From a virus: a DNA stretch of 64,000 nucleotides. This document shows, one piece after another, positions 1 to 19,248 of this stretch; position 1 is the stretch's first letter, and the number at the start of each line of letters is the position of its first letter. The notes beneath the pieces were generated by a model. The model was not told the origin of the DNA, made no database searches, and saw nothing but the letters and a program-made list of their open reading frames with translations. Made by a program: the position numbers and the translations under genes. The stretch spans positions 61,777-125,776 of IMG/VR virus record IMGVR_UViG_3300032217_000845; one strand, 5' to 3'.

Positions 1-1
1 T

Positions 2-31
2 GAGTTGTCTGACGAAAGCGACGACGACTAA
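2..31 (+). CDS. 3' end of an upstream cassette ORF (partial, ...ELSDESDDD*)
   Basis: In-frame acidic codons ending at TAA 29-31, followed by a terminator hairpin (GTCGCTGAC-TTCG-GTTGGCGAC-T run). The array continues beyond the window. Confidence 0.6.
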   Translation, partial: ELSDESDDD

Positions 32-242
32 ACACGACACGAGAAAGGTCGCTGACTTCGGTTGGCGACTTTTTTTGTATCTGCCGATTACGGAGTTGTA
101 TTCGTTTTTTCCTCACCCCTGCCGAACACGACTTCCCTGTTATCTATTTGTTATAAAACTTTCTACACTTCGGGAATAAATGAACTTGACTTTTAGTTAT
201 ACTCTATGTAATAATGTAGTTATGGACAACGAAAGGGAAACA

Positions 243-770
243 ATGAACAACTACGAGAAGTCATACAGCAACGAGCCGTTTCTAAATGGTGCGTTAGACA
301 TACCTATTTGGAGTGAAATACTGCCGAACTTTTGGCTAGGTGGAACTGCCGATAACGATTGTGTTGGCGATAAGCACTTTCAGTTTGATAGGCAGGACAT
401 CTCTATCAAGCCTAGAAACTTTGATAGCGTTTATACTTTCTACGCTTACGCTAACCCTGTTGATTGGCTAGTTAGAGAGTTTAGGTTTGGCTACTTTGAT
501 AGTGGCGAAACTGACTTTGACTTAGACGAGTTTAGGCGTATTGCTCTAATGGCTCACGCTGATTGGAAGCGTGGCGAGAGAGTGCTAATGCGTTGCCAAG
601 CAGGTCTAAACAGGTCAAGCCTATTCTTTGCCTTAGTGCTTATGATTGACGGCTACACGGCACAAGAAGCGATTGACTTGATACGAGAGAAGCGACACGA
701 TAAGTGTCTATTCAATCCTCACTTCGTAGCGTGGTTGCTCAAACAAGACTTAGAGTTTTGGCGAGCATAA
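243..770 (+). CDS. Dual-specificity/tyrosine protein phosphatase-family protein
   Basis: CX5R P-loop (RCQAGLNRS) and the AQEAIDLIREKR...NPHF C-terminal pattern. Start placed after GAAAGGGAAACA. Confidence 0.85.
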   Translation: MNNYEKSYSNEPFLNGALDIPIWSEILPNFWLGGTADNDCVGDKHFQFDRQDISIKPRNFDSVYTFYAYANPVDWLVREFRFGYFDSGETDFDLDEFRRIALMAHADWKRGERVLMRCQAGLNRSSLFFALVLMIDGYTAQEAIDLIREKRHDKCLFNPHFVAWLLKQDLEFWRA

Positions 771-791
771 ACTCACGCTAAGAAAACCTAA

Positions 792-820
792 CCCCCGTGA
801 AAACTCACGGGGGATTTTCT
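792..820 (+). terminator. Intrinsic terminator (representative; nearly every cassette ends in one)
   Basis: CCCCCGTGA-AAAC-TCACGGGGG followed by ATTTTCT. Confidence 0.85.
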
Positions 821-962
821 TAGTGCGAAGTTGCGAAGGTGTATTCGTTTTTTCCTTACTCTACAAACACGGTGGAAGTATTACTTGCGTAAATCCATAA
901 GGTATGGTAAGATAGTTAGGTAGTCAGAAAGTCTGGCACAATAGAAATCCTGAAAGGGAACA

Positions 963-1286
963 ATGCTAAAAATGGAAATAAATGGGACAGAAGTAGTTAG
1001 TCCTATGGAAATCGCAAGTCGCTTCGGAGTTAGTTTGCCTGCTGTTTATGTCTGGGCAAGGCGTTCGGATTTTCCGACACCACTACTAACGACAGGTGGC
1101 TCACAACGACCACGCCACATTTACTCGGCTACCGAGATTGAGGCTTGGGTCGCTGAACACCTTGACGCTAAGGGTGGCAGGGGCAAGGCTCATCTAATCG
1201 GGCGTAGAGTTCTAGGGCTGGCAACATCTAACCCTGAAATCTACAAGCAGATTGAGCAGTTGCTAGAAAGCACCGACACCGAATAA
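963..1286 (+). CDS. AlpA/excisionase-like HTH DNA-binding protein
   Basis: EIASRFGVSLPAVYVWARRSDFPTP...YSATEIEAW pattern; RBS GAAAGGG. Confidence 0.7.
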   Translation: MLKMEINGTEVVSPMEIASRFGVSLPAVYVWARRSDFPTPLLTTGGSQRPRHIYSATEIEAWVAEHLDAKGGRGKAHLIGRRVLGLATSNPEIYKQIEQLLESTDTE

Positions 1287-1411
1287 GGCTCTGAAAGAAA
1301 CACGCTTACCCGAAAGGGTAGGCGTTTTCTTTTTTTGCTAATGCGAAGTTAGCCGAGTGTATTCGTTTTTTCCTTACACGCTGTCTAGCACGACACGCTA
1401 ATAGTATGAAC

Positions 1412-1440
1412 TTGCTTTTGTCGGTAGTATTTGGTATAAT
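1412..1440 (+). promoter_or_regulatory. Sigma70/SigA-type early promoter (representative)
   Basis: TTGCTT-17 bp-TATAAT. Equivalent promoters precede nearly every cassette (e.g. TTGACT at 3421, 7026, 14084). Confidence 0.85.
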
Positions 1441-1481
1441 AGTTATGTAGTCAGAAAGACTGATTACAGAAAGGGAAACAA

Positions 1482-1796
1482 ATGGAAATCGCTTTACTAG
1501 GTTTCTTAGGTGTTGTATCGCTTATGACTATCGGTGCTTTCTTGGTCGTAGTCTTGTGTGCGTTTATCATCTACAAGATAGACCCGACTTATGACGAGTT
1601 TGGTTTCTGGGGAAACTTCCGTATGGAACTCTCCACTATCCTTGCTGGCAAGTTTGGCTACGAAGTATCACGACAAGAATACAAACAGGCTTACGACTTA
1701 GGTGTCAAAATGAGCGACAGAACTCTACAAGGTAGCAAGAACAGACACCCTGCCAACAATGATGGTAAGTTGCCTTACGAACTCTACAAATACTAA
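1482..1796 (+). CDS. Hypothetical membrane protein
   Basis: N-terminal hydrophobic helix; RBS GAAAGGGAAACAA. Confidence 0.75.
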   Translation: MEIALLGFLGVVSLMTIGAFLVVVLCAFIIYKIDPTYDEFGFWGNFRMELSTILAGKFGYEVSRQEYKQAYDLGVKMSDRTLQGSKNRHPANNDGKLPYELYKY

Positions 1797-2012
1797 GTAG
1801 AACTCACCGAGAGATTACCCCGTAGAGATACGGGGTTTTCTTTTACCCTGTGGGCTGGGAGTTGTATTCGTTTTTTCTATACCACTAATACGAAAGATAA
1901 CAACTTGATAACAACACGATACAAAGATAGTAAATGGGCTTGTATTGTCATTAGATAGGAGTATAATCATAGGTATAGGAAAGTTTCCAAAGGGGAAACT
2001 GAAAGGGACAAA

Positions 2013-2384
2013 ATGACACTAGTAGCAGATACCAAGATTGGCACAGCAGTAGAAACCAAGATTGGCACAGCCGAGTTGAGTGCTGGTAGAGAACGCAAGA
2101 ACTTCTACAAAGACGGAACTAGGGTTGCTCACATAGACAGGATTTACGCACCGAGCAGAGTGTTTATTGACTTGGGCGAGAGTGTCTGGGAACACCTGAA
2201 CAACAGACACAATAGGGATTGGCAGACCCTAAAACCTATCGTGGCTGGATTGCTCTGGGCTAATGGGATTGCCTTTGAGAAACTATCGTGGAACAAGAAC
2301 GCTGGTTGTAAGATGTGTGCTTGCTCTGGTGGGTTCGTAATCACAGGACACAAGGGACAAGACTTCTGGCTCACGATTAGATAA
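2013..2384 (+). CDS. Hypothetical protein (GCxxCxCS motif)
   Basis: Promoter, RBS and terminator context. Confidence 0.8.
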   Translation: MTLVADTKIGTAVETKIGTAELSAGRERKNFYKDGTRVAHIDRIYAPSRVFIDLGESVWEHLNNRHNRDWQTLKPIVAGLLWANGIAFEKLSWNKNAGCKMCACSGGFVITGHKGQDFWLTIR

Positions 2385-2571
2385 GCCAAACACGAAAGCC
2401 CCTGCCGAGAAATCGGTGGGGGTTTTCTCTTGCTATCGCTAATGCGAAGTGTATTCGTTTTTTCCAGATGGCACGGGGCGTGGAGTTTCCGTTATCTGTT
2501 TGTTATAAAGTTTTGGGAAGATTTGTATCACTATTTAGGTTTCTATTATTGTGAAGGAAAGGAGAGATACT

Positions 2572-2712
2572 ATGGAAGACAAACTAAATCCTAAGTTTGG
2601 ACTAAACACCGAGAACCCTGATGTCAAGGGTTTCTTAGCGTGGCTATTCGACCCAGAAGTCGATAAGGCTATTGAGCAGTTCATACAGGACACTAGCAAC
2701 GACACCGAGTAG
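2572..2712 (+). CDS. 46-aa hypothetical protein (MEDKLNPKFG...)
   Basis: RBS GAAAGGAG, own cassette; below the ORF-track cutoff. Confidence 0.7.
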   Translation: MEDKLNPKFGLNTENPDVKGFLAWLFDPEVDKAIEQFIQDTSNDTE

Positions 2713-2958
2713 GTGTAGTCCGTAGCGATAGGCACAGATAATCTCTGTGCCTATTTTGCTATCTTGATACGAAGTTAGGGAAAAAACGAATACATACCCT
2801 AACCCTCTTTATAACGAAATGATAACAACACGATAATACTTGCTAAATGGATTTGACTTTTCCTAGTGGTATAGATTAGGATTACTAATGTAATCGGAAA
2901 TCAAAGTTGGAAAGTCCAATAGAGAGATTACTTAGACCTCACGAAAGGGGTTGGTAGT

Positions 2959-3312
2959 ATGGCTAAGACAGCCATTACTCCGAAGGTAGTAGCAACTGCT
3001 ACTACTTCCACCACCGAAGGCACTCGCAAGGTGTCTAAGGTTCTAGTTGCTAAGGTTGCCGAAATGGCTCACCTTCGCACCGAGATAGCACGCTTGGAAA
3101 AGTTGGCTAACTCACTTCGCAAGGAAGTTCTTGCCGAAGTCGGTTCTGACCCTGTTGTTCTTATTCACAACAACATCAAGGTTGCTAAGGTGTCTGTGGT
3201 AATCACGGAACGCCCTGACCTTGACGCCCTTCGTTCAGCGTTCCCTGACGCTTGGGACGCTGTGAAATACGACAGCCCTGCTGTAAAGATTTCGGTTATC
3301 CACGAAGTCTAA
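2959..3312 (+). CDS. Hypothetical protein, coiled coil plus 'DxDALxxxF' domain; paralog of 15034..15363
   Basis: RBS GAAAGGGG; similarity to the 15034 ORF seen by eye. Confidence 0.75.
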   Translation: MAKTAITPKVVATATTSTTEGTRKVSKVLVAKVAEMAHLRTEIARLEKLANSLRKEVLAEVGSDPVVLIHNNIKVAKVSVVITERPDLDALRSAFPDAWDAVKYDSPAVKISVIHEV

Positions 3313-3455
3313 TCAGTAGTCCCGAAGTCCCCTAGCCGAAAGGCTGGGGGATTTTCGCTATCGGGTTTTGGCAGGGTTGTATTCGTTTTTTCCACACGAC
3401 ACACGGGGGGCAGATTGGATTTGACTTTGTCTGTGCTATGGTGTAGTATGAAGTT

Positions 3456-3872
3456 ATGAATACACAAATACAGCAAGACGAACTAGAACTCCCGACAGGG
3501 CGTATCTACTTTGACGACATCATCAAGACCGATTTTGGTCTATTCCAAAACCTAGATGCTTTGTTGCTCTGGGCTAGTGAAAACCCTAGTGAAGTATCTG
3601 GCTACGAAAGTAGAACTTTCCTGCGTTCATACCGAAACAATAATGGTAATCTCTCTGTGGTCTATGTCTGTAAAGACATTGACGAATGCGATTGCTCTTG
3701 GCAGTTTGCTACACACTTACACGAAATCGCTGTAAGACACATCAAGGAACAGGGTGGAACAGACTTCCCTGCTGAACCTGACTTTGATACAACTCCACGC
3801 AAGCAAGTTGATTGCGAATACCTAGTTGAGATTGAGTATCGCTATGTGGAAGTTGGCGTAGTAGTCAAGTAA
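3456..3872 (+). CDS. Hypothetical protein (leaderless)
   Basis: ATG is 6 nt after the -10 box TAGTAT (3444-3449). Confidence 0.75.
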   Translation: MNTQIQQDELELPTGRIYFDDIIKTDFGLFQNLDALLLWASENPSEVSGYESRTFLRSYRNNNGNLSVVYVCKDIDECDCSWQFATHLHEIAVRHIKEQGGTDFPAEPDFDTTPRKQVDCEYLVEIEYRYVEVGVVVK

Positions 3873-4040
3873 TCTGCGAGAGAGTGGGCAGGGGAAACCC
3901 TGCTCATTTTTTTTGTTAGTCCAATGTGTATTCGTTTTTTCCTAGCACGACACGCTAACACGGGGGCTACTTGCTTTTGTCGGTGCTAGGGTGTAAGATA
4001 GTGTTATCGGAAACTCCGATAGGAAATGAAAGGGAAACAA

Positions 4041-4247
4041 ATGAAGTATGCGTTTCGCAGATTACTTGCTGGTATCGTAATCGTGCCACTAGTCGCTATC
4101 GCCTATCTATTCGGCTACGCTATGCTGGTTGGTCTGGGTGCTGAACCTACTGCTAGTGCTAGTGAAGTCTGGTCGCTAGGGTTGCTGTTCGGTCTAATCG
4201 CTACGCTGGTATTCGCTGGCTCGGCTCTGGTAAAGGCAGGTAAGTAA
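4041..4247 (+). CDS. Small 2-TM membrane protein
   Basis: Two hydrophobic segments; RBS GAAAGGGAAACAA. Confidence 0.75.
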   Translation: MKYAFRRLLAGIVIVPLVAIAYLFGYAMLVGLGAEPTASASEVWSLGLLFGLIATLVFAGSALVKAGK

Positions 4248-4405
4248 TGAAGTATCTACTCGCTGGGCTAGGGGCTTACTCCATTGGGGTTGGCTCTTGG
4301 TTCTACAACGCTAACAACACGCTAAACTCTCTGTTTATCGGCTGGGGGCTGGGCTTGCTCTTGCTAGTTGGCTCTATGGTTCTATTCATTGGGGGCGACA
4401 AATGA
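4247..4405 (+). CDS. 52-aa membrane microprotein (MKYLLAGLGAY...)
   Basis: TAATG overlap with the previous ORF; hydrophobic. Confidence 0.65.
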   Translation: MKYLLAGLGAYSIGVGSWFYNANNTLNSLFIGWGLGLLLLVGSMVLFIGGDK

Positions 4406-4521
4406 CTAGGGAACTCTGGTTCGCTGTTGTCCTAGCGTTGCTCGTTGGCTCATCTATCTTGCTAGGCTGGTGCTTACACGCTTGGCATTACAGACCACGC
4501 TATCGCAGAAATCGCAGATAG
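4402..4521 (+). CDS. 39-aa single-TM microprotein with Arg-rich tail
   Basis: ATGA overlap; MTRELWFAVVLALLVGSSILLGWCLHAWHYRPRYRRNRR; terminator follows. Confidence 0.6.
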   Translation: MTRELWFAVVLALLVGSSILLGWCLHAWHYRPRYRRNRR

Positions 4522-4729
4522 GTTTTAGGAACTCCCCCGATTATGTCGGGGGTTTTCTTTTGCCTGTTTCGGTTCGGGGTGTATTCGTTTTTTCTTGACA
4601 TACGGCAAGGATTATAACGAAATGATAACGCTACACTAATACGAAGTTGCTAAGTTGCTTTTGTCGGTGGTAGGTGGTAAGATTGTATTAGTTAGAAAGT
4701 CTAACTACTTATAGAAAGGGGCGACCAAA

Positions 4730-5089
4730 ATGGTTGCTGGCGTTATCATCACAACTGAAATGAACACCACAGAACTTCCTGACACTTCATACGAAGCGAT
4801 TAGCAAGGCTGTCGGTGGCTACATACAGATAGTTCCACTACAAAACGACTTCGCTGGATACTCAATGTATCTACACGAAGAGGGTAAGTTGATTGGTCTT
4901 CCAATGAACGACATCGCAACTGCCGTTTGGGAAAACTCATACGGACACACAGACATCATCTTAGGAAATGTCGTAATCGTCAATGCGAACACAGACGACG
5001 ACGGAAACGAACTTCCTATTAGCGAAGACGACGCTGAAAGCCTTATGGCGAAACTAAGACTAGTCTTTGTGAAATACGCTACGAACTAG
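4730..5089 (+). CDS. DUF3846-like protein
   Basis: VGGYIQIV...MYLHEEGKLIGLPMN...DIILGNVVI pattern. Confidence 0.75.
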   Translation: MVAGVIITTEMNTTELPDTSYEAISKAVGGYIQIVPLQNDFAGYSMYLHEEGKLIGLPMNDIATAVWENSYGHTDIILGNVVIVNANTDDDGNELPISEDDAESLMAKLRLVFVKYATN

Positions 5090-5271
5090 CCAAGCAAGTA
5101 GTTAGGCGATTAGGGAAACCTAGTCGCCTTTCTGCGTTTTTGCGTGGGGGCAGGGTGTATTCGTTTTTTCCATTACGACACGCTAAGGGCTATCGTGATT
5201 TGTATTTGTCGGGGTAGTATGATACAATCGTATTGTTAGTTGGAAAGGCTGACTAACTGAAAGGGAAACAA

Positions 5272-5670
5272 ATGGCAGTAATAGATTGGGACGAAGTAGA
5301 TAGTGGTCTAGTAGGTGCTAAGGCTATTGCCTTTGATACTTGCCACAAAATCTATGTCCTTATGGACGATGAGCAGGTTGCCGAAATGCGTGGCTACGGA
5401 TACGGCGATGAACCAGATAGTTTCTACACTTGCGATGAAATGTCGCATAGCGAAATGCTGGAAAAGCTAAAAGAGTGGTTTGAGAAGTCTTGCCCCCTGA
5501 AGTTCATACAAGCAGTAGAAACTAATCACACCGACCCTAACGCTGGTTTTACCACGCTGATTGAGCAGGGTGCTACCGAATACGAACTTTGCTACATCTG
5601 TGGAGCCGAAGGTTGCGAAGGTGAGTGCGAAGACGAAGACGACTACGAAGACGAAGAAGACGAAGAGTGA
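5272..5670 (+). CDS. Hypothetical protein with Cys-rich and acidic C-terminus
   Basis: RBS GAAAGGGAAACAA; cassette context. Confidence 0.8.
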   Translation: MAVIDWDEVDSGLVGAKAIAFDTCHKIYVLMDDEQVAEMRGYGYGDEPDSFYTCDEMSHSEMLEKLKEWFEKSCPLKFIQAVETNHTDPNAGFTTLIEQGATEYELCYICGAEGCEGECEDEDDYEDEEDEE

Positions 5671-5681
5671 GCCTGATAGCA

Positions 5682-5852
5682 ATGCGTAAGTGCGATTGCT
5701 GTAATGGCGAGAGTGTCTTCACTTGCGAGAGTTGTGGAAACGGATTGGCAAGCGAACGAAAACCTTTCGTTGATAGTTCTGGGATTGAGTTTGACCCGAA
5801 CACCGAACACGCTATTTGGGTTTGCGTGGATTGTGCCGAACGCCTAGCCTAG
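5682..5852 (+). CDS. Small Cys-rich (zinc-finger-like) protein
   Basis: CxxC pairs (CDCC, CESC, CVDC); alternative GTG start at 5667. Confidence 0.6.
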   Translation: MRKCDCCNGESVFTCESCGNGLASERKPFVDSSGIEFDPNTEHAIWVCVDCAERLA

Positions 5853-6034
5853 TCCTAAGAAAGTCCCCTTGCGAAAGCAGGGGGATTATTCTTTGCCCGA
5901 TTGGTTGCGAGATGTATTCGTTTTTTCCTGTGGATACGGCAGACACGACACGCCTTAGCCTTGACTTGACTTTATGTTAGTAGTTTGGTATAATGAGAGT
6001 ATCAAGTAAGTTGCTTGATAGAAATGGGAAACAG

Positions 6035-6238
6035 ATGTCAGTAAAGTATCCAGAAGTCAAAACTGTAAAGTTAGTTGGCGAAGACGGAAATGCTTTCGCT
6101 ATCTTGGGAAGAGTTGTGAAGGCTATGCGTGTAGCAGGTCTATCTAAGGAAGTCCAAGACGCTTACTACAAGGAAGCCACTAGTGGCGACTACGACCACT
6201 TGCTACAAACAACGCTTCGCTGGGTAAAGACCAAGTAA
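6035..6238 (+). CDS. Phage hypothetical protein (LVGEDGNAFAILG...SGDYDHLL)
   Basis: Motif I recognise from small phage proteins; cassette context. Confidence 0.75.
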   Translation: MSVKYPEVKTVKLVGEDGNAFAILGRVVKAMRVAGLSKEVQDAYYKEATSGDYDHLLQTTLRWVKTK

Positions 6239-6459
6239 AGAACCCGTCGGGTATTCGGTCAATACTCAAAAGCCCCCTTACTCTCACACACGGAGTAGGG
6301 GGGTTTCTTCTTTTGCTGTGGTTGTGGTTGCTGCTGAAAAAACGAATACACTTCGCACTAGCACGGGGGCGACACGCTTCGTATGTGTTTGCGTATGTCG
6401 GGGGTGTAGAGTATAATAGTATTAGTTAGAAATACTAACTAGAAACGAAAGGGAAAGAA

Positions 6460-6708
6460 ATGGGTCTAAGCAAAGACTTCTATTCGGGGTTTGCCTTTGA
6501 GGAACTCGGTCGTATGGTCGGGGGACACAAGGACTACTTCGTTAGTGAGCAGACTATCGCTATGGTCTGGGCAGAGTGCCACAAGAACGAACGCCTTATC
6601 ACGCTGGCTGGTATGTATCTGGTTGGGTCAAGCGAAAGGGCTGAACGAAACTTACAGAAACTACAAGACGAACTCCGTCTTGTGTTCATTGAGCGAAAGG
6701 TAATCTAA
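6460..6708 (+). CDS. Hypothetical protein
   Basis: RBS GAAAGGG. Confidence 0.75.
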   Translation: MGLSKDFYSGFAFEELGRMVGGHKDYFVSEQTIAMVWAECHKNERLITLAGMYLVGSSERAERNLQKLQDELRLVFIERKVI

Positions 6709-6929
6709 TGGAAGTCGCAGTAATCGTAGTGCTAATCCTTATGAGTGGTCTGGGTGCGATAATCGGTGCTTGTCTTACGACAATGAACTTACGCAAGGCT
6801 TTCATCTTTACTATCCACAATGCTACGGACTATGTAGTAGATGTTCGTATTGACTACTCCACTAAGGAAGTTGTGGTTGTAGATGTAGCCAAGCAACCTG
6901 CTAAACCAAGAGCCAAGCGAACCAAGTAA
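6708..6929 (+). CDS. Small membrane protein
   Basis: TAATG coupling; N-terminal TM helix and basic tail. Confidence 0.7.
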   Translation: MEVAVIVVLILMSGLGAIIGACLTTMNLRKAFIFTIHNATDYVVDVRIDYSTKEVVVVDVAKQPAKPRAKRTK

Positions 6930-7060
6930 GTTCGCATACGGGAAGTCAGTAATGGCTTCCCGTTTCTCTTAGTGTCAAGTTGTATTCGTTTTTTCCTGAC
7001 CTGTGGGACACGGGTCGCTCTTGACTTGACTTTACTAATGCTATGTGATACACTTATCTT

Positions 7061-7249
7061 ATGAATAAGAAAGCGAAGCCAATGAACAAGGCAAACCAAG
7101 CAAGAGCCAAAGTAGAGCGTTCTGCTCTGGCAGTAATCTTGCGTGAGCGTGCCAAGAGCAACGCTTCTGGTGTTCATACCAACAAGGCAACAAAGCGAGC
7201 CAACACCCGTTCGGCTCGTAAATCACAAGCACTTAGAGAGTGGGCATAA
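7061..7249 (+). CDS. Small very basic protein (leaderless)
   Basis: TTGACT 7026 and TACACT 7049, then ATG 6 nt later; K/R/A-rich. Confidence 0.7.
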   Translation: MNKKAKPMNKANQARAKVERSALAVILRERAKSNASGVHTNKATKRANTRSARKSQALREWA

Positions 7250-7375
7250 ATGGAACTAACTGACCTAGAAGCAAAAGCAGTAAAGGCTATTTACAGCGAC
7301 TATCACGATGGGGCTATGGACGCTGACGAAGCACTACACGCCTTAGAACAACTCATCAACAACGACAACGACTAA
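7250..7375 (+). CDS. 41-aa acidic protein (MELTDLEAK...)
   Basis: Directly abuts the previous stop codon; terminator follows. Confidence 0.6.
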   Translation: MELTDLEAKAVKAIYSDYHDGAMDADEALHALEQLINNDND

Positions 7376-7535
7376 GAACAGAGAGAGAGAGCCTATGCTT
7401 CGGCATAGGTTTTCTTTCTGCGTGGGTAGCAGTGGAAAAAACGAATACATACGGAGAGCAACACGCCTATCCTATGGACTTGACTTTTATCCTATGCTTT
7501 GATACAATAGGGGTATAGAAAGAAAGGGGTAGCAA

Positions 7536-7898
7536 GTGGCTACTAAGCAAACAGCAACAGCAAGCATAAAGTTATGGGACTTTACTCTAACTATGTCGGG
7601 TGGCATTATCGGCGTATGGAGTGAATGGACTTACACACTAACCTATGGTTCTGGACAGAGCAAGACCTATCACGACGAACACGGATACTACACAACAGAC
7701 GAGTTAGATGAAGCCCTATGGGTAGAAGCAGTTCGCATTGTTGAGAAGTATGGCAGAAACATTTCAGTTGAGGTAGCAGATGTAGAAGTCTGCCCTGATT
7801 GCGACGAACGCATTACAGACGACAACCCTCTCATTGACGAAACACAATACAGCACGCAGTTCGGTTCTTGTATTGGTTGTTGCGACCCTACGCCATAA
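7536..7898 (+). CDS. Hypothetical protein with C-terminal CxxC pairs
   Basis: RBS GAAAGGGG, GTG start. Confidence 0.75.
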   Translation: MATKQTATASIKLWDFTLTMSGGIIGVWSEWTYTLTYGSGQSKTYHDEHGYYTTDELDEALWVEAVRIVEKYGRNISVEVADVEVCPDCDERITDDNPLIDETQYSTQFGSCIGCCDPTP

Positions 7899-8075
7899 CA
7901 CGACCTAACAAAACGCCACTTAGTCAAACGACTAGGTGGCTTTTGTCTTATCTGGAAGTTGTGGCGAAGTGGCAGTGTATTCGTTTTTTCCTAACAACAT
8001 CGCATTAGTGAGATGTGCTTGACTTTGTCGGGGGTCTGTGTTAGAATAGTATTATCCAAATGAAAGGGGATACAA

Positions 8076-10755: not shown

Positions 10756-10994
10756 CGCCTAGCGTTAGTCAAGACCCCCTTGCCAAACGGCAGGGGGGTT
10801 TTCCTTTGTCTAATGCGAAGTTGTGGCACGGGGGGAGATGTATTCGTTTTTTCTGTGGTGCTGGTTTTGGGCTGTGGTCGTTATCAAGTTGTTATGTATT
10901 TATTATGCGTTTATGTAGAAAATGTCTGTGGAGTAGGCTATAATGGTATTAGTTGGAAGTTAGCGAATGTCTAACTCAACTGAAAGGGACGCAA

Positions 10995-11210
10995 ATGGCT
11001 AAGCCAAGTGTGAAGTTAGTTCAGGAATGGGAAGTTGCTTACGAGAGTGGGCTAGTGAAAGTGTCTTACGGCACGGCTGTCTTTGAGCAGGACTATTGGA
11101 AAGTGGAAAACAGGATTATCAACAAGGTTCAGTATTTCTACGGAGAAACTGCGTGGTCGGACGCTAGGCGTAGAGCAAGCGACATTGACTTTGGTGCGTG
11201 GAGTTTCTAA
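10995..11210 (+). CDS. Hypothetical protein
   Basis: RBS GAAAGGG; start corrected from the track. Confidence 0.7.
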   Translation: MAKPSVKLVQEWEVAYESGLVKVSYGTAVFEQDYWKVENRIINKVQYFYGETAWSDARRRASDIDFGAWSF

Positions 11211-11487
11211 CTAAATAATCAAACAAACAAACTAGGCAGGGTTCTCCTCTCTGCCTAGTTTTGTTTTTGCCTGTGGTAATGCGAAGTTGCGTGCGTGCGT
11301 ATGTGTAAGTGCGTGCCTGTGGTTGCGTTCGTGTATTCGTTTTTTCCTAACTACTACGGAACGAAACACGGGTGCTAGTTCGTTATCTGTTTGTTATAGA
11401 AAGTTAGTGTATGAACTTGACTTTATCTTAGTTAGGGTATAGACTACATTTGTAGTCGCAAGGGCTACCAGATGAAAGAGGGAACAA

Positions 11488-11811
11488 ATGGCAACTATCA
11501 AGATTACTTGGGTATCAAAGGGATACTTGGGCGAGTTCAGGGACGCAACTATCCTTGACCTAATCAACAAGGGCTACGATGTTCGTGGCAACGCAACAGC
11601 AGAGTTGGACTTTGACTTTCCAGAGGGCGACACTCTAATCTGTAATGCTATCTACGCAAACACTAACTCCTACACAGGAAAGTTTTGGGACGCATTACAG
11701 GCAGTTATTCCAGCAGACAGACCACACACGGCTCTAAGTATGGGCGACAAGGTTTCTATTGACGGACGAGAGTATGTTTGCTCGGAGTTCGGTTGGAAAC
11801 TTGTAGCCTAG
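11488..11811 (+). CDS. Hypothetical protein (HTALSMGD...YVCSEFGW C-terminus)
   Basis: Cassette context. Confidence 0.75.
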   Translation: MATIKITWVSKGYLGEFRDATILDLINKGYDVRGNATAELDFDFPEGDTLICNAIYANTNSYTGKFWDALQAVIPADRPHTALSMGDKVSIDGREYVCSEFGWKLVA

Positions 11812-12012
11812 CCAAACAGCCAAACAGCCAAACAGCCAGCCGAAAGGTTGGTTGTTTGGTTTTTGCGTTAGTGCGAAGTTGTGGCTGCCAGGAAAAAACG
11901 AATACAGACCCTAGCCCGACACGCCCGACACGACAAGCAACTTGACTTTATTGCTGTGGTATGTTAGACTACAAATGTAGTCAGAAAGATTACGGAACTG
12001 AAAGGGAAACAA

Positions 12013-12231
12013 ATGAACCTACTACAAGCAGAAATCCTAGTTATCGGACTTGAGTTTGAGATTGCTATGGACGGAAAGATGTCTGTTAGTGCCGAACCAG
12101 CGATGAAGTCTTTGGGTCGCCTGATGAACATTGACGCTTATGCTCACTTTGGTAAAGGCGTAAAGGGTCGCCAAAAGGCTCTTGAGTGGCTCAAGGAAGC
12201 GATTGCGGAAGCAGAGAAGCAAGAAGCCTAA
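12013..12231 (+). CDS. Hypothetical protein
   Basis: RBS GAAAGGGAAACAA. Confidence 0.75.
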   Translation: MNLLQAEILVIGLEFEIAMDGKMSVSAEPAMKSLGRLMNIDAYAHFGKGVKGRQKALEWLKEAIAEAEKQEA

Positions 12232-12297
12232 TACGAAGTTAGAAGCCCCCTACGGAAGCGTGGGGGGTTTTCTCGTGCCTGTGGAGTTATGAACACC

Positions 12298-12318
12298 TGT
12301 GGATAACCCTGTGGATAA
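12298..12318 (-). promoter_or_regulatory. Two tandem perfect DnaA boxes
   Basis: TGTGGATAA (reverse complement of TTATCCACA) at 12298-12306 and 12310-12318. Confidence 0.7.
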
Positions 12319-12411
12319 CTTTGGTGGGGTTTGTATTCGTTTTTTCCTAATCACGCTTGCGAGTTGCCTCTACAATAGGAACACGCTTACATTTAGAAAG
12401 AGAGGCTAACT

Positions 12412-12642
12412 ATGGTTTGGATACAAACAAACTTTACCGCCGAAGCAATGAACACGGGCAAGCCAGCGACAGAAACCCCTGTTGTAGCGAAGCCTGAACC
12501 TGTCGTCAAGAAGAAGGCTAAGGCTGAACCTGTGGCAGAAGTAGTAGCAGAAGTAGAAACACCTGCGGTTGAGGTTGAGGAAGTAGTCCTCGCTGAACCA
12601 GAGGTCGCCGAGCCAGAGGTCGCTGAACCCGAAGCAGAGTAA
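12412..12642 (+). CDS. Low-complexity acidic protein (AEPEV repeats)
   Basis: RBS GAAAGAGAGG; terminator at about 12661-12690. Confidence 0.7.
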   Translation: MVWIQTNFTAEAMNTGKPATETPVVAKPEPVVKKKAKAEPVAEVVAEVETPAVEVEEVVLAEPEVAEPEVAEPEAE

Positions 12643-12739
12643 TCACGGCTTATAGTAAAGTCCCCCTTGACTAGAAATAGTTAGGGGGATTTTCTATTTG
12701 GTGTTGCTTTTGTCTGTGGTATGTGATAGACTATAAATA

Positions 12740-13010
12740 ACAAGGAAGCGACGGCTAACTTGGAGTATGGCTGAACAACCTCAATCGTCAGATGGGGGGG
12801 TAAGGCAATGTCGGATACTAGCGTATCGTCTTAGCGGACAAACGGCAGGTGTGCTGAAAAGCGGGCTTAGAACCGAACTGACTTGGCATTGGTGGTAAAA
12901 CGCAATCCACCTACTCAACTACAAACATAAACGGGCTGGTGTGGCGTTTATGTGGCTAACATTAGTGGCTACCAGACAGAACCCTTAGCGGAAACGCTAG
13001 GGGTATTTCT
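12740..13010 (+). ncRNA. Candidate structured non-coding RNA cassette
   Basis: Promoter TTGCTT(12704)-17-TAGACT(12727), terminator 12981-13004 and several internal hairpins. The only ORF noticed is 43 aa (12767..12898) and lacks the array's RBS. Confidence 0.55.
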
Positions 13011-13153
13011 GTTTTTGCGATGTCTGCGGTTGCGGTATGTATTCGTTTTTTCCTAGCCCCTCACGAGAGGCGACACACGCACGGCAGGTGGAGTTGCTTT
13101 GTTTAGGTGTTAGTGGTATGATTACTTTGTAATCAAGCAACGAAAGGGAAAAA

Positions 13154-13522
13154 TTGGAAAACAGAATTACTGAAAAGCAATTAGGGCTTCTAAGAAAACT
13201 AGCCAAAGAAAAATACGCACCAAGTTTGGTTGCGGAGTTGGAGAAGTTTCTAGCAACTGATTTGAGCAAGCAAGGGGCTAGCAACCTTATTGAGAAGTTC
13301 CTAGAAGCACCGAAGAAAAGCGAAAGTCCAGAATACAAAGCCGAACTTGCCGAGAGAGCCAAGCAAGCGAGAGAACGAGCAGAACTAGCCGAGCAAGCCA
13401 AGCAAGCAGAAACCGAGAACTGCCGAGAGTGTAAGCAGGGACACCCTGTCGCACATTTCAATTGTAGTTTCCCGAACAGGATTGGACACACTAGGCACTG
13501 CACCGCTGACTTGTGTTTCTAG
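13154..13522 (+). CDS. Hypothetical protein; N-terminal domain shared with the 10297 ORF
   Basis: TTG start after GAAAGGG; ITEKQL...LSKQGASNLIEKFLEAP. Confidence 0.7.
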   Translation: MENRITEKQLGLLRKLAKEKYAPSLVAELEKFLATDLSKQGASNLIEKFLEAPKKSESPEYKAELAERAKQARERAELAEQAKQAETENCRECKQGHPVAHFNCSFPNRIGHTRHCTADLCF

Positions 13523-13725
13523 TTAGCAACTAGGGAAGTCCCTTAGCCAGAAATGGTTAGGGGGCTTTCTTGCTTTTGGGCTGTGGCTGTGGGTTAGGTG
13601 TATTCGTTTTTTCCTAGCCTCAACTGCGACACGACACGCATACGATAATGACTTGACTTTCTGTTATCTGTGTGTTAGAATACTTATGTATTCAAAGGGA
13701 ATACAAAAACGAAAGGGAAACACAA

Positions 13726-13932
13726 ATGTCAGTAAAAACTCTAGTAGTAGAAATCCACTACCAAGACGGCAGACCAACTCTAAAGCCAATCTACGAGTGC
13801 CACAGCGTAGAAAAGTTTGAGGAGTTTGTGGCTTGGCACAAGGAAAACCTACCAATGAGAACCACCACAACTCTCAAAGCCTACGACTACAACTCAACCA
13901 CCCCTGAACTAACAGAGATGATTATCAAGTAA
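13726..13932 (+). CDS. Hypothetical protein
   Basis: RBS GAAAGGGAAACAC; start corrected from the track. Confidence 0.7.
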   Translation: MSVKTLVVEIHYQDGRPTLKPIYECHSVEKFEEFVAWHKENLPMRTTTTLKAYDYNSTTPELTEMIIK

Positions 13933-14118
13933 GTTAGGCAACCGAGAACCCCCTACGAAAGTGGGGGGTTTTCTTTTGTCTGCGGGTGCGTGTGTTAGTG
14001 CGAAGTTGTAGAGTGTGAAATCGGTAGCGTAAGAAAAAACGAATACACTACGGACACGACAACACGGGGGCGAGTGTGGCTACTTGACTTTTGCTGTGGT
14101 AAGTGGTAGAATAGTATT

Positions 14119-14550
14119 ATGGCAAAACTTCTAGTGCTACAAGGCTTAGTGGCTTCGGGCAAATCAACTTACGCTAAGGGACTTCTATCTATTCACCCTG
14201 CGGGCTACGCTATGCGTATCAACAATGACGACTTATCTACGGCTATGTTTGGCTCTGCGTTTGGCGGTGGTGCTAACACGGCTCAACTGCTAGGCAAACT
14301 TCGGGCGGACTTAGTTCGTCTAGCGTTTCGCAATGGTTTTGAGTTAGTCATTATGGACAACACAAACCTAAACCCGAAAGCCGTCAAGTCATTAGAAAGA
14401 TTGGCGGAGAGTTGCGGTGTTGAGTTTGAGTTGGACAACTCGTTTCTAAGTGTGCCTATTGCGGAGTGCTTGCGTAGAAATGCTCTGCGTGAAAACCCTG
14501 TTCCCGAAAAGGTGGTTTTAGAAATGGCTCGCCTTATTGGAGATGATTGA
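14119..14550 (+). CDS. P-loop kinase, T4 polynucleotide-kinase N-domain/AAA_33-like (leaderless)
   Basis: Walker A GLVASGKST, RINNDDL, VIMDNTNL and ECLRRNALR...VPEKVV motifs. Confidence 0.8.
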   Translation: MAKLLVLQGLVASGKSTYAKGLLSIHPAGYAMRINNDDLSTAMFGSAFGGGANTAQLLGKLRADLVRLAFRNGFELVIMDNTNLNPKAVKSLERLAESCGVEFELDNSFLSVPIAECLRRNALRENPVPEKVVLEMARLIGDD

Positions 14551-14614
14551 CTTTTGCGTTTCTATGTGGTAGAATACTTTTGTAGTCAAAGGGATTGACT
14601 ACTGAAAGGGAAAG

Positions 14615-14815
14615 ATGAACAAGTTCGTTATCACAAAGTCAATAGCAGTAGTCAAGGCAGTTGCTCGTGGTGTTGCGGTAGCAACCGAAAGCAAGGCGAC
14701 CACAAACCGAAAGGCGAAAGTTGCTAACGAGGTAGCCAAGTGCGTTGCCGACTTAGGACTAAACCCTGTTGCGAGTGTGAAGCGTGTTGTGCGTATGGTG
14801 GAAACCCTGCGGTAA
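14615..14815 (+). CDS. Small basic hypothetical protein
   Basis: RBS GAAAGGG; its promoter -35 overlaps the previous TGA. Confidence 0.65.
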   Translation: MNKFVITKSIAVVKAVARGVAVATESKATTNRKAKVANEVAKCVADLGLNPVASVKRVVRMVETLR

Positions 14816-15033
14816 GACTTACAAAGCAAACCCGTCTAGCGAAAGTTAGGCGGGTTTTCTTTTGCTTGCGGTGTTTGCTTCGTGCGTTGTTGTATTCGTT
14901 TTTTCCTAAGTGCTTGCCTAGTGCGACACGCTAGAAAGAAAGTTTGTAAATGAACTTGACTTTTCTGCGGTAGCCTGATAGACTACAAAGGTAGTCAAGG
15001 CAAAGGGCTAAGACACAGATGAAAGGGAAACAA

Positions 15034-15363
15034 ATGACCACAGCAACACAGACCACCGCAAAGGTAATCTCTAAGGTTGAGTTGAGTGCTAAGGGCGTAA
15101 AGGCTCTACAAGCGTTCAACAAAGCAAAGGAAGCGGAAGCAAAGGTAAAGGCAACTAAGTCAAAGGCGGAAGCAATTTTGCGGACAGAGTTGGGCGAAAC
15201 CCCGAACACACAAGCAACTATTCAGGGCGTAGTTGTTGCCAGCGTAGTTGGAAGCAAGAATACTTCGTTTGACCGAGATGCTCTAAAAGAGTTTCTAGGT
15301 GAAGAGAAATACAACGAGTTCCTGCGGACAACCGAATACACTTACATCAAAACCGCTAACTAA
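15034..15363 (+). CDS. Hypothetical protein, paralog of 2959..3312
   Basis: RBS GAAAGGGAAACAA; FDRDALKEFL motif. Confidence 0.75.
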   Translation: MTTATQTTAKVISKVELSAKGVKALQAFNKAKEAEAKVKATKSKAEAILRTELGETPNTQATIQGVVVASVVGSKNTSFDRDALKEFLGEEKYNEFLRTTEYTYIKTAN

Positions 15364-15552
15364 GTTAGCAAGCGAGCAACCGCTAACCGAAAGGTTGGCG
15401 GTTGTTTGCGTTTTTGTTTTGCGGTGTTGCGTTTCGTGCGTGTGTTCGTGTGTCTGCGGTAAGCGTGGAAAAAACGAATACACTTTCGCCAGCCAGCCAC
15501 GCCACGAAAGCGAGTGTTTGCTTTTGTCTGCGGTTAGTGTTAGAGTGTAAGT

Positions 15553-15690
15553 ATGGACATTAGATTTTATGCGTGGAAAGCAGTCGCTAAGGTTGCTAGG
15601 TATTTCAGCAGAGTTGGGTATAACCTATTTAGGCGAGCCGAACACTTCTCTTATCTTTCAGGTAAGAAAGCAAGCAAGTATAAGGCTTGA
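15553..15690 (+). CDS. 45-aa basic protein (leaderless; MDIRFYAWK...)
   Basis: TTGCTT 15518 and TAGAGT 15541, ATG 6 nt later. Confidence 0.6.
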   Translation: MDIRFYAWKAVAKVARYFSRVGYNLFRRAEHFSYLSGKKASKYKA

Positions 15691-15742
15691 CTTTACTGCG
15701 GTAAAGTGATAGAATAGTATTACCAGACAACACTAAGAAAGG

Positions 15743-15991
15743 GTGAAAATGTCTAGCAACTATCCAGACGGCTCTATGATGGGTTCAGGTATTTACGCAA
15801 GCGAGGTTTCGTATGAAGAGTTTGAGTGCGAAAATGAAGAGTGCGGTAAGACCAATGAAGCAGGTGAAACTTCTACTGACGATTGGGGAAACTACTCTAT
15901 CGAGTGTGAGTTCTGCGGTGCTAACTATTTAGAGAGTTCTCTAAGTGATGACCGAGATGACTACTTAGCAGACTACGACCCGAATAACTAA
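15743..15991 (+). CDS. Small acidic zinc-ribbon-like protein
   Basis: CENEEC and CEFC; RBS GAAAGGG (ATG 15749 is an alternative start). Confidence 0.7.
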   Translation: MKMSSNYPDGSMMGSGIYASEVSYEEFECENEECGKTNEAGETSTDDWGNYSIECEFCGANYLESSLSDDRDDYLADYDPNN

Positions 15992-16050
15992 ATAGACTTA
16001 TGCGGTAAGGCGGGGAAAGCCGAACGCAACTTTACATAACTAAATAAACT

Positions 16051-16165
16051 TCTGCCTAACTTGTTTCCCCCTTTCCGTTAGGCAGAGAAAGAGAAACGGG
16101 ACTGCCCCCTAACTAACCCGTTTCTCCTAAACCGCTAGGCGTTTATTCGTCTAGCGGTTTTGTCT
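16051..16165 (+). ncRNA. Candidate small RNA: two hairpins with C/U-rich loops plus terminator
   Basis: Stem 16051-60/16077-86 with loop TTGTTTCCCCCTTTCC; stem 16091-100/16117-26 with loop ACTGCCCCCTAACTAA; terminator about 16129-16160. Confidence 0.5.
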
Positions 16166-16466
16166 TTGTCTGCGGTGTTTGTTTTTGTGTGTTTGTTGTA
16201 TTCGTTTTTTCTTGTGCTTGTGAAACCGCTTCCACTACGCAACTTTGTATTAGTAGGTTGCTTCGCTTCCTTCGCCTTCGCTTCGTGTTGTTGCTTCGCT
16301 TCGCTTTCGTTCGCTTCGCTTCTGCGGTGCTTCGCTTAGTGAGTTGTTTCGTTATCATTTTGTTATAAAGTCGTTATCGTCTTTGTAATCTTATTACTTG
16401 ACTTTTATTCTGCGGTAGAGTAGAATAAGAGTATGTAGAAAATCTACATAGAAAGAAAAGGGAAAG

Positions 16467-16685
16467 ATGAACAACAAGGCAAGAGATACCCGAGCAAGTT
16501 GGGGACTAGTTTCATTTATGTTGGCATTGTTTATTGGTGCTGACGCTTTGGGAAACATAGACACTACGGACTATTACCACGACAGAGCATTAGGTTTCTT
16601 TGTTCTGTTCTTAGGTATTACTTTCGTGCTTTACACTTGGAACGCTATTCAGTATGCGGTATTCCTAAAACGCAATAGACGCTAA
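16467..16685 (+). CDS. Small 2-TM membrane protein (last cassette)
   Basis: Promoter, RBS AAAAGGG and terminator. Confidence 0.7.
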   Translation: MNNKARDTRASWGLVSFMLALFIGADALGNIDTTDYYHDRALGFFVLFLGITFVLYTWNAIQYAVFLKRNRR

Positions 16686-16926
16686 CAACTTCACAACTTA
16701 GCAACCGCCTAGCCGAGAAAGGTTAGGCGGTTCTTTGTTTTTGTTTGTGCTTCTTTCTTTTGCTTCGCTTCGTGCTTCGTGAGAGGTTGAGAAAAAACGA
16801 ATACGCTTCGCAACTTTGTATTAGTGTTTGTCTGCGGTGCTTCGCTTCTAGGTTCTTTCTTTGCTTTGCTTCGCTTCGTAGTTCTTTCGTGCTTCTTTGT
16901 CTTAGTTGCTTCTTTGTCTGCGGTGC

Positions 16927-17742
16927 TTGACTTTCTTGCTTCTTTGTTCTATGTTTGTTTGCTTCGCTTCGCTTCGCTGTTATCATTTCGTTATTATTCT
17001 GTTTGACTTCTTTGCTTCTTTGTTCTATGCTTATTCTTTGTTGTTATCATTTCGTTATCTTTGTATGTTCTTGACTTTGTTAGTCGTTTGTTCTATGCTT
17101 ACTCTTTGTCTGCGGTAATGCTTCTAAGGGGTTGTTTGTTATCATTTCGTTATAAAGGTATAAAAAAAGTGCCTTTGTAGAATAAGCAAGGCGACACTTT
17201 CAGGGATAGGCGTGTGTGTTTGTATCATCTAAGGGGTCGTGGCTTCTATGAGCCTTATAGAGCCTTTTGAGATAGGGGACTTTCAGGATTATTTGGGTTC
17301 GTTATCTGTTCGTTATCTGTCTGTTATCTGTTCGTTATGTGCGGTAATGCTTCTAAGGGGTATTTCCTTGCTTCGCTTCTCTTAGTTAGTTGTTCTCTTT
17401 CCCTGTGCTTACTTGCTTAGTTCTATGCGGTAATGCTTCTACTGCTTGACTTATGTGCTTCTATGTAGTAGAATAGTGTTATCTATTCGTTATCTAATAG
17501 ACTTGACTTTATTAGAATACTTTGATAGAATAGTATTGTCTGCCTCTTTGACCTGACTTGACTTAGTTAGGTTAGGCTTCCCTAACTTACTTCCCTGCGG
17601 TAATGCTTCTACAAGTTAGTTAGTGCTTCGCTTCGCTTCCCTACTTAGTTAGTTGTTTGACTTATTCGCTTATGTCTGTTAGAATAGTGTTATCTATTTG
17701 TTATCTAACTTACTTGACTTTGTTATAGTTTTATGTTATAAT
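16927..17742 (+). promoter_or_regulatory. Seven consensus promoters with no credible downstream gene
   Basis: TTGACT-17-TAnnnT at 16927, 17003, 17071, 17446, 17503, 17657 and 17714. Confidence 0.7.
17567..17585. promoter_or_regulatory. IdeR/DtxR-type iron box (1 mismatch)
   Basis: TTAGGTTAGGCTTCCCTAA versus consensus TWAGGTWAGSCTWACCTWA. Confidence 0.65.
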
Positions 17743-17788
17743 AGTAATGTCTATCTATTGACTATCTCAACCCCTACCCCCTGCCTAC

Positions 17789-17807
17789 TTAGGTTAGGCT
17801 TACCTTA
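17789..17807. promoter_or_regulatory. IdeR/DtxR-type iron box (full consensus match)
   Basis: TTAGGTTAGGCTTACCTTA. Confidence 0.75.
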
Positions 17808-17937
17808 CCTACCCCCTGCCTAGCCCTGTGCGGTAATGCCCTTATAGGCTTACTATTCTCTGCGGTAATAGTGGTAATGGTTCGTTATCATTTCGTTATC
17901 TATTAGTTAGTGCTTGGCTTTGCTGGGTTAGTCTAGG

Positions 17938-17956
17938 TTAGGTTAGCCTTACCTAA
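17938..17956. promoter_or_regulatory. IdeR/DtxR-type iron box (full consensus match)
   Basis: TTAGGTTAGCCTTACCTAA. Confidence 0.75.
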
Positions 17957-18581
17957 CTAACTAAGTATTAGTTAGTGCTAACTAGGTATGACTTACCCCC
18001 TTGTATGTATTACCTACCTACCTATACCCCCTACCCCTACCCCCTTATGCTTACCTATCTCTGCGGTAAGTGCTTTATAGGTTGTTTGTATCCTAATGAC
18101 TTACTTACCTAGGTAAAGACTTTCATCACTTAGATAGTCATTGACTTACTTAGTCATTGACTTACTCACTTAGTCATTGACTTACTCATCTACTCATCTA
18201 CTCATCTACCTTTGTAGTGGATAGAGTGCTTAGTGCTAAGTTGATAATCGTTAGTGTCCTAATGACTTACTTACCTAGGTAAATAATAGTTAGTTAGTGC
18301 CTAGTTCGTTAGTGTCCTAATGATAGTCGTTCGTATCCTAATGATTTCATAAACTAATAAACATAATCGTTTGTATCCTAATGATTTAGATAGTAAAGAG
18401 AGCATTGACTACCTTACATAACAATAAATAATAATGTTATGTCAAGTAAGAATTTTCGTAGCATAATACAGGAAACGATTAGCAGGAACCCCAGATACTG
18501 CAACTGCCGTCTGACCCGCCAAAAGCACTAGACGCTAAGGTATCAACTCTTCGGTACAGTAGAGCCAGAATAGGTGCTAGT

Positions 18582-19091: not shown

Positions 19092-19248
19092 ATTTGACAC
19101 CAACCCCGAAAAGGTGTGCTAGTCTTTTACATGGAGAGCTTATCTCGCAGTAAAAGCGAAGGTAGGCTCTTTCGCATAACTGAATAAAGTGTCACTTCGA
19201 CAATAAACGACCCCAGTGCTAACTAACAAGGAAAGGTAAGGTCGCTAA

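Follow-up and report, generated by a model that had tools for sequence, protein, structure and literature searches.

A palindrome-purged zone compared with first-entering DNA of known phages

In T5-like phages, restriction–modification (R-M) systems and clustered regularly interspaced short palindromic repeats (CRISPR) are described as acting only via sites in the first-step-transfer (FST) DNA (PMC10644984; bioRxiv 10.1101/866236), and for T7-like murciaviruses it is described that motifs restrict the phage only if they lie in the region injected first (PMC12455610). The DNA analysed here is a stretch of 64,000 nucleotides (the window) covering positions 61,777–125,776 of the IMG/VR virus record IMGVR_UViG_3300032217_000845 (125,776 bp, class linear, 93% complete), with window position 18,450 at record (genome) position 80,226. 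The window opens within a zone of about 30.4 kb from which nearly all palindromic 4-mers have been lost; on balance, this zone is probably first-exposed early DNA of the T5 FST kind under restriction selection.

In Bacillus phage SPO1, a host-takeover module with many small early genes and strong host-type promoters and terminators lies in the long terminal redundancy, and the DNA is protected by hydroxymethyluracil; we know of no regional loss of restriction words in SPO1. The zone resembles this module in its small early genes, each with its own host-type promoter and terminator. The leading region of the T7-like phages (Autographiviridae) is injected first, enters by transcription and carries anti-restriction genes. 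With it the zone shares one-way genes and many host-type promoters, and its zone-limited word loss parallels the rule that R-M motifs matter in the leading region alone (PMC12455610). Unlike that region, it is far longer, no described family of Ocr- or ArdA-type DNA mimics was found in the Pfam and PHROGs summaries of 48 open reading frames (ORFs) of the zone, and a strong terminator stands at each cassette end, which is a poor fit with one polymerase pulling the DNA in.

Like the FST (pre-early) DNA of T5 and BF23 (Tequintavirus), which lies in a long terminal repeat, the zone is a block of early genes that ends in a non-coding, repeat-dense piece, and it is probably a long terminal repeat. 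The 2.4-kb end piece resembles the distal non-coding repeat region of T5, in which iss is annotated at 9140–10149 of the 10,219-bp repeat. The zone also bears the sequence footprint expected of the FST-only restriction rule, together with an approximately twofold contig depth. It differs in belonging to an unrelated phage family with an actinobacterial host and in a block length of 30 kb as against about 9.6 kb; judged by this comparison, it is an analogue of the T5 FST and not a member. Genome-wide site avoidance in phages and plasmids has its parallels here in the lack of GATC throughout 125.8 kb and, in cultured relatives, in 6-bp palindromes that are lacking throughout, but in the present genome the purge of all words except one is regional, and it affects words of only 4 bp. 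For plasmids, 4-bp palindromes were reported not to be specially avoided (PMC10359461). A literature search returned the T5 and T7-like precedents and no case in which almost every 4-bp palindrome is lost from one region, most subscription journals lying outside the search.

All 16 palindromic 4-mers were tallied in 2-kb bins, expectations were calculated from mononucleotide, first-order Markov and maximal-order Markov models, and 14 words (AATT, ACGT, AGCT, ATAT, CATG, CCGG, CGCG, GATC, GCGC, GGCC, GTAC, TCGA, TGCA and TTAA) were counted. Over the 30,386 bases of the zone that were counted, these 14 words occurred 24 times, as against 1,630, 1,438 and 1,315 expected, respectively; in the other 95 kb there were 3,479 occurrences with 4,682 expected, a mild depletion (observed/expected ratio, O/E, 0.74). 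The densities were 0.8 per kb within the zone and 36.5 per kb outside. An original prediction, made from the letters of the window alone, had described window 1–18,450 as nearly free of these words, with a sharp boundary near 18.45 kb. Both statements held: window 1–18,450 (+ strand) contains 13 sites of the 14 words in 18.45 kb, the near-absence persists under Markov-corrected counts, and a site-free gap of 2,551 bp ends at the first AATT (window 18,451–18,454, inside GAATTT), which marks the right purge edge and is followed by 12 sites within 330 bp; right of window 18,451 the counts are 55–108 per 2 kb. The zone as a whole proved to be larger than predicted, its left edge lying between genome 49,673 and 49,833, 12.0–12.1 kb upstream of window base 1, and its right edge at genome 80,226. 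Both edges are resolved to 160 bp or less, and the purge is a little less complete in the leftmost 1.7 kb, which holds 6 of the 24 sites.

CTAG and TATA had both been called common; this is true of CTAG (146 observed, 116–216 expected, no depletion), but TATA is partly depleted (45 observed, 90–158 expected). The reported absence of GATC from the window was borne out and extends to the entire record, with none in 125,776 bases (264 expected outside the zone, 73 inside); GATC is the only 4- to 6-mer at or below 0.2 of expectation outside the zone. The exceptions in the window are AGCT at 5465 and 10197, TCGA at 2648, 2660, 8889, 9515 and 15900, AATT at 15174 and, clustered in ORF 13154, AATT at 13152, 13165, 13179 and 13460 and TGCA at 13499. 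All ten that had been listed are real, and the TCGA sites at 2648, 2660 and 9515 had been missed (10 of 13 found).

Lost words, spared words and their variation among relatives

Words other than uninterrupted palindromes were lost as well (tallies are observed/expected counts in the zone). Among interrupted words these were GANTC (0/116), GTNAC (0/116), GGNCC (1/85), CCNGG (5/85), GCNGC (7/85) and ACNGT (8/116), the S-centred TTSAA (4/73), CTSAG (4/54) and CASTG (4/54) and, with longer spacers, GTNNAC (2/116), GGNNCC (3/85) and CTNNAG (7/116). Asymmetric words of the type IIS kind were lost on both strands: GTCTC/GAGAC (5/54), GGATG/CATCC (2/56), GAGTC/GACTC (0/54), GCATC/GATGC (4/54), GCAGC/GCTGC (6/46) and ACTGG/CCAGT (5/54). 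Equally symmetric words were kept, namely AGNCT (152/116), TGNCA (101/116), TANTA (116/158) and CTWAG (112/62), and 6-mers based on CTAG showed no clear depletion (ACTAGT 7, CCTAGG 2, GCTAGC 3 and TCTAGA 3, with 4–14 expected). The lost words are known sites of REBASE prototype enzymes (HinfI, MaeIII, Sau96I, ScrFI, Fnu4HI, Tsp4CI, AgsI, Hpy166II, NlaIV, BsmAI, FokI, PleI, SfaNI, BbvI and BsrI), and the spared words, except CTAG and CTNAG, are not known to be enzyme sites.

The purge also reaches the proteins. For nine dipeptides (YM, CT, WP, HM, HV, MH, MQ, NM and DM) every codon pair includes a purged 4-mer, and in the 51 zone proteins of at least 60 residues these dipeptides occurred 5 times, as against 46.6 expected from composition; selection on DNA words therefore overrode protein sequence. 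Outside the zone the same dipeptides occurred 164 times in 74 proteins, with 173.4 expected.

As judged from word content, restriction avoidance is strongly supported as the cause of the purge, because interrupted and asymmetric words of restriction type were purged but not the equally symmetric AGNCT, TGNCA and TANTA, and because the purge reaches protein sequence and the purged set differs between related lineages; the earlier proposal of restriction-site avoidance is upheld by these same features. It is very improbable, and we disfavour the idea, that the palindromes were removed for structure or expression (cruciforms, hairpins in transcribed DNA, recombination hot spots) without any link to restriction. 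In favour of such a cause, transcription of the zone is very heavy and its strand bias marked (GC skew +0.09 to +0.20); yet it is rich in long terminator hairpins (46 as against 17 expected), dyads of equal symmetry met opposite fates (GANTC 0/116, AGNCT 152/116), asymmetric words disappeared from both strands and the sets vary between relatives.

Two further word patterns were observed. CAN6TG (3/116) and CAN5TG (19/116) are scarce in the zone regardless of their inner bases; to our knowledge there is no enzyme with so short a bipartite site as CAN6TG. The loss of CCCA in the zone is strand-specific, with 3 copies on the + strand versus 129 of TGGG (57 expected), and the zones of relatives show CCCA versus TGGG counts of 4 versus 27 (L019), 3 versus 48 (L036) and 0 versus 28 (L023), with 22 versus 22 in G001. 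This bias could reflect an orientation-dependent (type III-like) or an RNA-level target.

IMG/VR relatives were collected with the portal protein (window 23,712–25,520, + strand; PHROG 776, 3.9e-106) as bait; 590 were confirmed and 80 kept, and 28 of these 80 could be evaluated, as they included 5 kb or more of DNA upstream of the terminase. A strongly purged stretch (at most 6 sites per kb, as against 30–55 per kb downstream) was present in 5 of the 28 (L019, L023, L034, L036 and L061); two more (L039 and L067) had at most 9 sites per kb and seven had 12–19. Terminase identity to the present phage was 86–92% in the strongly purged five, 85–92% in the seven at or below 9 per kb, these five included, and 79–81% in 11 of 14 unpurged loci. 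L016 and L075, with shorter upstream DNA, are likewise purged. A search with the AAA ATPase of the zone gave 80 more loci, in 9 of which the gene itself has at most 8 sites per kb; in several lineages the left edge lies 1–1.5 kb upstream of this gene and is preceded by palindrome-rich DNA, as in the present genome. The complete relative G002 (153.7 kb) has a zone of about 13 kb, both edges of which are syntenic with those described here.

The purged set is a mosaic. G002 spares TCGA, CATG and GCGC and keeps GANTC (57/50), G001 keeps TCGA and GTNAC, L019 keeps CGCG, and L023 keeps AATT and TTAA; CCTC/GAGG is purged in L019 and L023 only, and CAN5-6TG in the present genome, L019, L023 and L036, whereas G001 and G002 have not lost it. 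Every lineage compared spares CTAG and has lost GGATG and GGNNCC. The word avoided genome-wide also varies among relatives (GATC, CCGG, GCGC or GGCC). Such a mosaic is as expected from adaptation to different host restriction repertoires. Phage methylases were considered as the cause of the spared words and rejected, G002 sparing TCGA, CATG and GCGC with no match to PF01555, PF00145 or PF02086. In a further relative, Actinomycetia phage DSL-LC01 (L010, bases 1–50,000; 50–60% GC), ATAT and TTAA are wholly absent and other palindromes common, which looks like a different, genome-wide avoidance.

The lineage differences bear also on the possibility that the zone avoids the phage's own enzymes, one or more early nucleases cutting host DNA at short palindromes while the co-present zone has to be site-free. 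This was proposed for T5 as Davison's idea of A1 as a restriction enzyme (bioRxiv 10.1101/866236). It likewise predicts a sharply bounded site-free block, likewise requires delayed entry of the rest, and could draw on the PD-(D/E)XK nuclease and other DNA enzymes that the genome encodes. We regard it as unlikely: more than 25 specificities were purged, some of them asymmetric, and the set differs between close relatives, so that a small number of phage nucleases could hardly account for it; among the Pfam families listed for the 48 zone ORFs there was no nuclease family; and the genome-wide avoidance of GATC points to a host activity.

In the reading preferred here, of first-exposed DNA under restriction selection, the zone would be an early host-takeover arm of about 45 small cassettes read by host RNA polymerase. 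Its DNA would find itself in the cell unmodified and unprotected, before any phage countermeasures, and restriction target words would have been swept out of it. Since the other 95 kb keeps the words, it would either not yet be inside (through paused or slow entry, as in T5 first-step transfer or transcription-coupled entry of T7) or be shielded by a zone product; that this DNA enters first and that such a product exists are inferences, as they were in the original prediction. That only GATC is avoided genome-wide implies a single GATC-directed activity of the host to which the early functions have no answer. A wider version of this reading, in which stepwise entry evolved independently of T5 with a 30-kb first-entering terminal repeat, the missing words (among them CAN6TG and strand-specific CCCA, for which we know of no enzyme) are an imprint of the freshwater-actinobacterial restriction repertoire, and the zone encodes a broad inhibitor that immunises the other 95 kb except against the GATC activity, is offered tentatively and may well not hold in full.

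Copy number and terminal repeats

Depth was available as one mean k-mer depth per assembled Logan contig. The probable source run (X1) and two runs with related strains, X2 from the same study and X6 from another study, were compared; a further run (X5) was too thin, and uncovered bins in X5 and X6 were given no weight. In X1, an 18,668-nt contig spanning window ~554–19,217 had a depth of 28.9, and the next contigs had depths of 14.8 (19,229–22,104), 16.4 (22,075–23,567) and 15.1 (23,538–28,400). The zone contigs stood at 37.5–46.8 versus 27.8–29.4 in X2 and at 21–23.6 versus 12.6–14 in X6. A terminal repeat that is collapsed in assembly gives a depth ratio of about 2. Exact direct terminal repeats, with the first bases repeated at the right ends, were found in Microbacterium phage Pumpernickel (19,963 bp) and Arthrobacter phage Atuin (17,312 bp), in both of which the repeat is an array of small genes upstream of the terminase and structural genes; long terminal repeats of this kind thus characterise the wider group. 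The suggestion that a long terminal repeat ends near 18.45 kb gained indirect support from the doubled depth of the zone contig and from the repeats of these relatives, but not from Pumpernickel gene by gene. Probably, then, a long direct terminal repeat is made up wholly or mostly of the zone.

A zone present twice per genome would leave room for an explanation in which stepwise entry is unnecessary: a second repeat copy made during packaging may escape host- or phage-directed methylation, and the repeat alone would have to be site-free. The contig depth and the long terminal repeats of the relatives are in keeping with this, and one N6/N4 DNA methylase is encoded outside the zone. It is nevertheless improbable, as methylation by one host would not shield 95 kb from many systems, yet these 95 kb are only mildly depleted (O/E 0.74); the complete relative G002 has a zone and no PF01555, PF00145 or PF02086 methylase, and the repeat-bearing cultured relatives show no repeat-limited purge.

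Several observations weigh against reading the zone as a terminally repeated, first-entering block like the T5 FST. The depth ratio is below 2 in X2 and X6 (1.35–1.7), and the depth step can be placed only as left of window 19,229, the contig break at 19.19–19.26 kb being due to a 71-nt repeat and not to the purge edge. The first gene of the Pumpernickel repeat matches an ORF at genome 46,692–47,627, 3 kb left of the purge and in palindrome-rich DNA, and the repeat gene gp49 of Pumpernickel matches genome 82,562–83,116, 2.3 kb right of it. In the cultured relatives, in place of a repeat-limited purge, many 6-bp palindromes are avoided genome-wide, and 14 of the 28 evaluable IMG/VR loci show no purge in the 5–8 kb of upstream DNA per locus. 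T5 itself has no general palindrome loss in FST coding DNA (4-mers O/E 1.01, 0.92 outside; 6-mer palindromes 0.81, 0.79 outside), unlike the zone, where O/E is 0.11 for all 16 4-mers and 0.05 for 6-mers (0.69 and 0.66 outside). When 12 T5 pre-early proteins were searched against the genome with tblastn, homologues of A1, A2 and dmp were not found (E 7.8, 6.9 and 3.2), the best match of the set being that of another protein (E 0.01 over 22 residues). No known anti-restriction family was found among the most-matched Pfam and PHROGs families listed for the 48 zone ORFs (25 of 29 for PHROGs). A DnaA-box cluster, a further point of difference from T5, was not found at the purge edge, the only two perfect boxes lying 6 kb away.

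The zone was also tried as a homologue of the Pumpernickel repeat; this was rejected, since gene-for-gene synteny misses the purge edges. The first repeat gene and the endolysin of Pumpernickel match ORFs at genome 46.7–48.7 kb, left of the purge. No consistent pattern of contig ends at zone edges was found among the related IMG/VR contigs. In Pumpernickel and Atuin (L009, L111, L112), at least 10 GC-rich 6-bp palindromes (such as CCGCGG, CGATCG, CTCGAG and GCCGGC) are absent from the repeat together with adjoining DNA. The 71-nt element that breaks the Logan assembly (window 19,188–19,258) is common, with 4 mismatches, to another 3-kb contig of the same sample.

If restriction selection on first-exposed DNA is the cause, restriction pressure can almost fully reshape 30 kb of coding DNA, down to the amino-acid pairs permitted, far beyond what is seen in textbook T5. 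The purge would then be a sequence-only marker of first-exposed DNA in uncultured phages, by which metagenomes could be searched for genome ends, early genes and candidates for anti-defence functions. The words missing from each lineage would predict the restriction specificities that circulate in not-yet-cultivable lake actinobacteria, and the approximately 45 early proteins would form a focused search space for a broad anti-restriction function of a kind that is unidentified in T5.

Host, gene cassettes and flanks

The virus is a tailed phage, profile matches placing the terminase, portal, major head, tail and adaptor proteins 3' of the right purge edge. The terminase large subunit (window 21,643–23,028, + strand; PHROG 979, 5.6e-26) is 62% identical to that of Pumpernickel and 85–90% identical in zone-bearing relatives, and the portal protein is 70% identical to that of DSL-LC01, 64% to that of Pumpernickel and 45–47% to those of the Arthrobacter phages Atuin and Mimi. 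The structural module, with portal and terminase, is thus common to this phage and the actinophages with long direct terminal repeats, Pumpernickel and Atuin, and WhiB genes are present; the WhiB matches, in two ORFs, indicate an actinobacterial host. The sequencing runs with matching DNA (20 runs) carry freshwater or lake metagenome labels, and most contain small shares. Together these features point to an uncultured freshwater phage of actinobacteria. DNA nearly identical to window 1–18,450 was not found in the phage collection, and no tRNA genes were found in the 64-kb window.

All likely genes of the zone lie on the + strand; a crude call gave 80 ORFs of at least 35 residues (73% coding). 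According to the ORF list, promoter and terminator scans and motif counts, window 1–15,991 (+ strand) is an array of small one- or two-gene cassettes, each consisting, in this order, of a terminator hairpin whose loop is often GAAA, the 15-mer GTATTCGTTTTTTCC, a promoter of the TTGACT-N17-TAGAAT type with extended -10, a GAAAGGGA ribosome site and a small ORF. In window 1–19,500 there were 38 promoter-like sites (31 on +; 22.9 in shuffles) and 46 terminator-like sites (33 on +; 17.2 in shuffles). Of the 34 genomic + strand sites of the form TTGACT-N16-18-TAnnnT, 30 are in the zone, and all 41 genomic copies of the motif GTATTCGTTT/AAACGAATAC (10-base core) are there too. The invariant 15-mer GTATTCGTTTTTTCC occurs once per cassette, in the interval from terminator to promoter, and every copy lies within the zone, 31 of them in this orientation and 10 in the opposite one; it ranges over window 98–16,207 and upstream to genome 49,894, and relative L019 has 6 copies. 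The genome has just two perfect DnaA boxes, both reading TGTGGATAA and set 12 bp apart (at 12,298 and 12,310, within window 12,298–12,318), in an intergenic stretch of the zone.

Families found among the 48 zone ORFs were an AAA_5 ATPase with a VWA partner, an AAA_33/polynucleotide-kinase-like protein, SSB, a dual-specificity phosphatase, and HTH, WGR, DUF3846 and DUF6011 domains. Many zone products are strongly acidic, the most acidic being a protein of 132 residues with a net charge of -31 (window 5,272–5,670, + strand), in which an acidic tail accompanies a Cys/His core that is conserved. Its family is widespread and comprises 697 homologues of about 130 residues with invariant Cys/His, a CxxC...CxGxC end and a poly-acidic tail. 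No Pfam family was found for it with the 697 homologues, the best PDB sequence match had E=0.05, and its confident structure model (predicted local distance difference test, pLDDT, 85.7) gave no PDB fold match at E<=0.001 (best E 0.061). It was tried as a candidate anti-restriction protein and set aside, neither the sequence nor the fold match giving a function.

Contigs of the related strains in X2 and X6, aligned with the window, show cassette-sized gaps of 511, 561, 579, 2,327 and 4,839 bases. The cassette at window 13,012–13,574 (+ strand), which holds ORF 13154–13522 and 5 of the 13 window exceptions (4 AATT, 1 TGCA), is variably present between strains, being skipped in X6 (joint 13012>13574) and in X2 (13019>13599). 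It is probably a recent arrival in which the purge is still incomplete.

The distal end piece of the zone (window 15,992–18,450, + strand) is T-rich, repeat-dense and mostly non-coding, with at least 10 promoter-like sites, 33 direct-repeat families and an AT skew of -0.35; its sequence includes a small ORF with a ribosome site (window 16,467–16,685, + strand). TCCTAATGA is present five times within 360 bp of the edge (window 18,091–18,384, + strand) and nowhere else in the genome, and the motif also occurs at the zone ends of L023 (3 copies), L075 (5), L019 (1) and L016 (1). The end piece is kept only in the closest relative, L016 (82% over 1.27 kb), and more distant relatives share short motifs only. 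The first gene of the unpurged part (window 18,582–19,091, + strand) is a homologue of Pumpernickel gp76, annotated as helix-turn-helix (43% identity, blastp).

Just left of the purge, an array of AACCG (genome 46,028–49,710) has 42 copies on the + strand versus 2 on the - strand in 3.7 kb and ends at 49,710; the stretch is GC-richer and unusually palindrome-rich. CGGCNNGC is likewise strand-polar, with 23 copies on + in genome 46–50 kb, and the syntenic left flank of G002 has 25 versus 2 copies of AACGG. A role as a stop, packaging or Chi-like signal is conceivable for the AACCG array.

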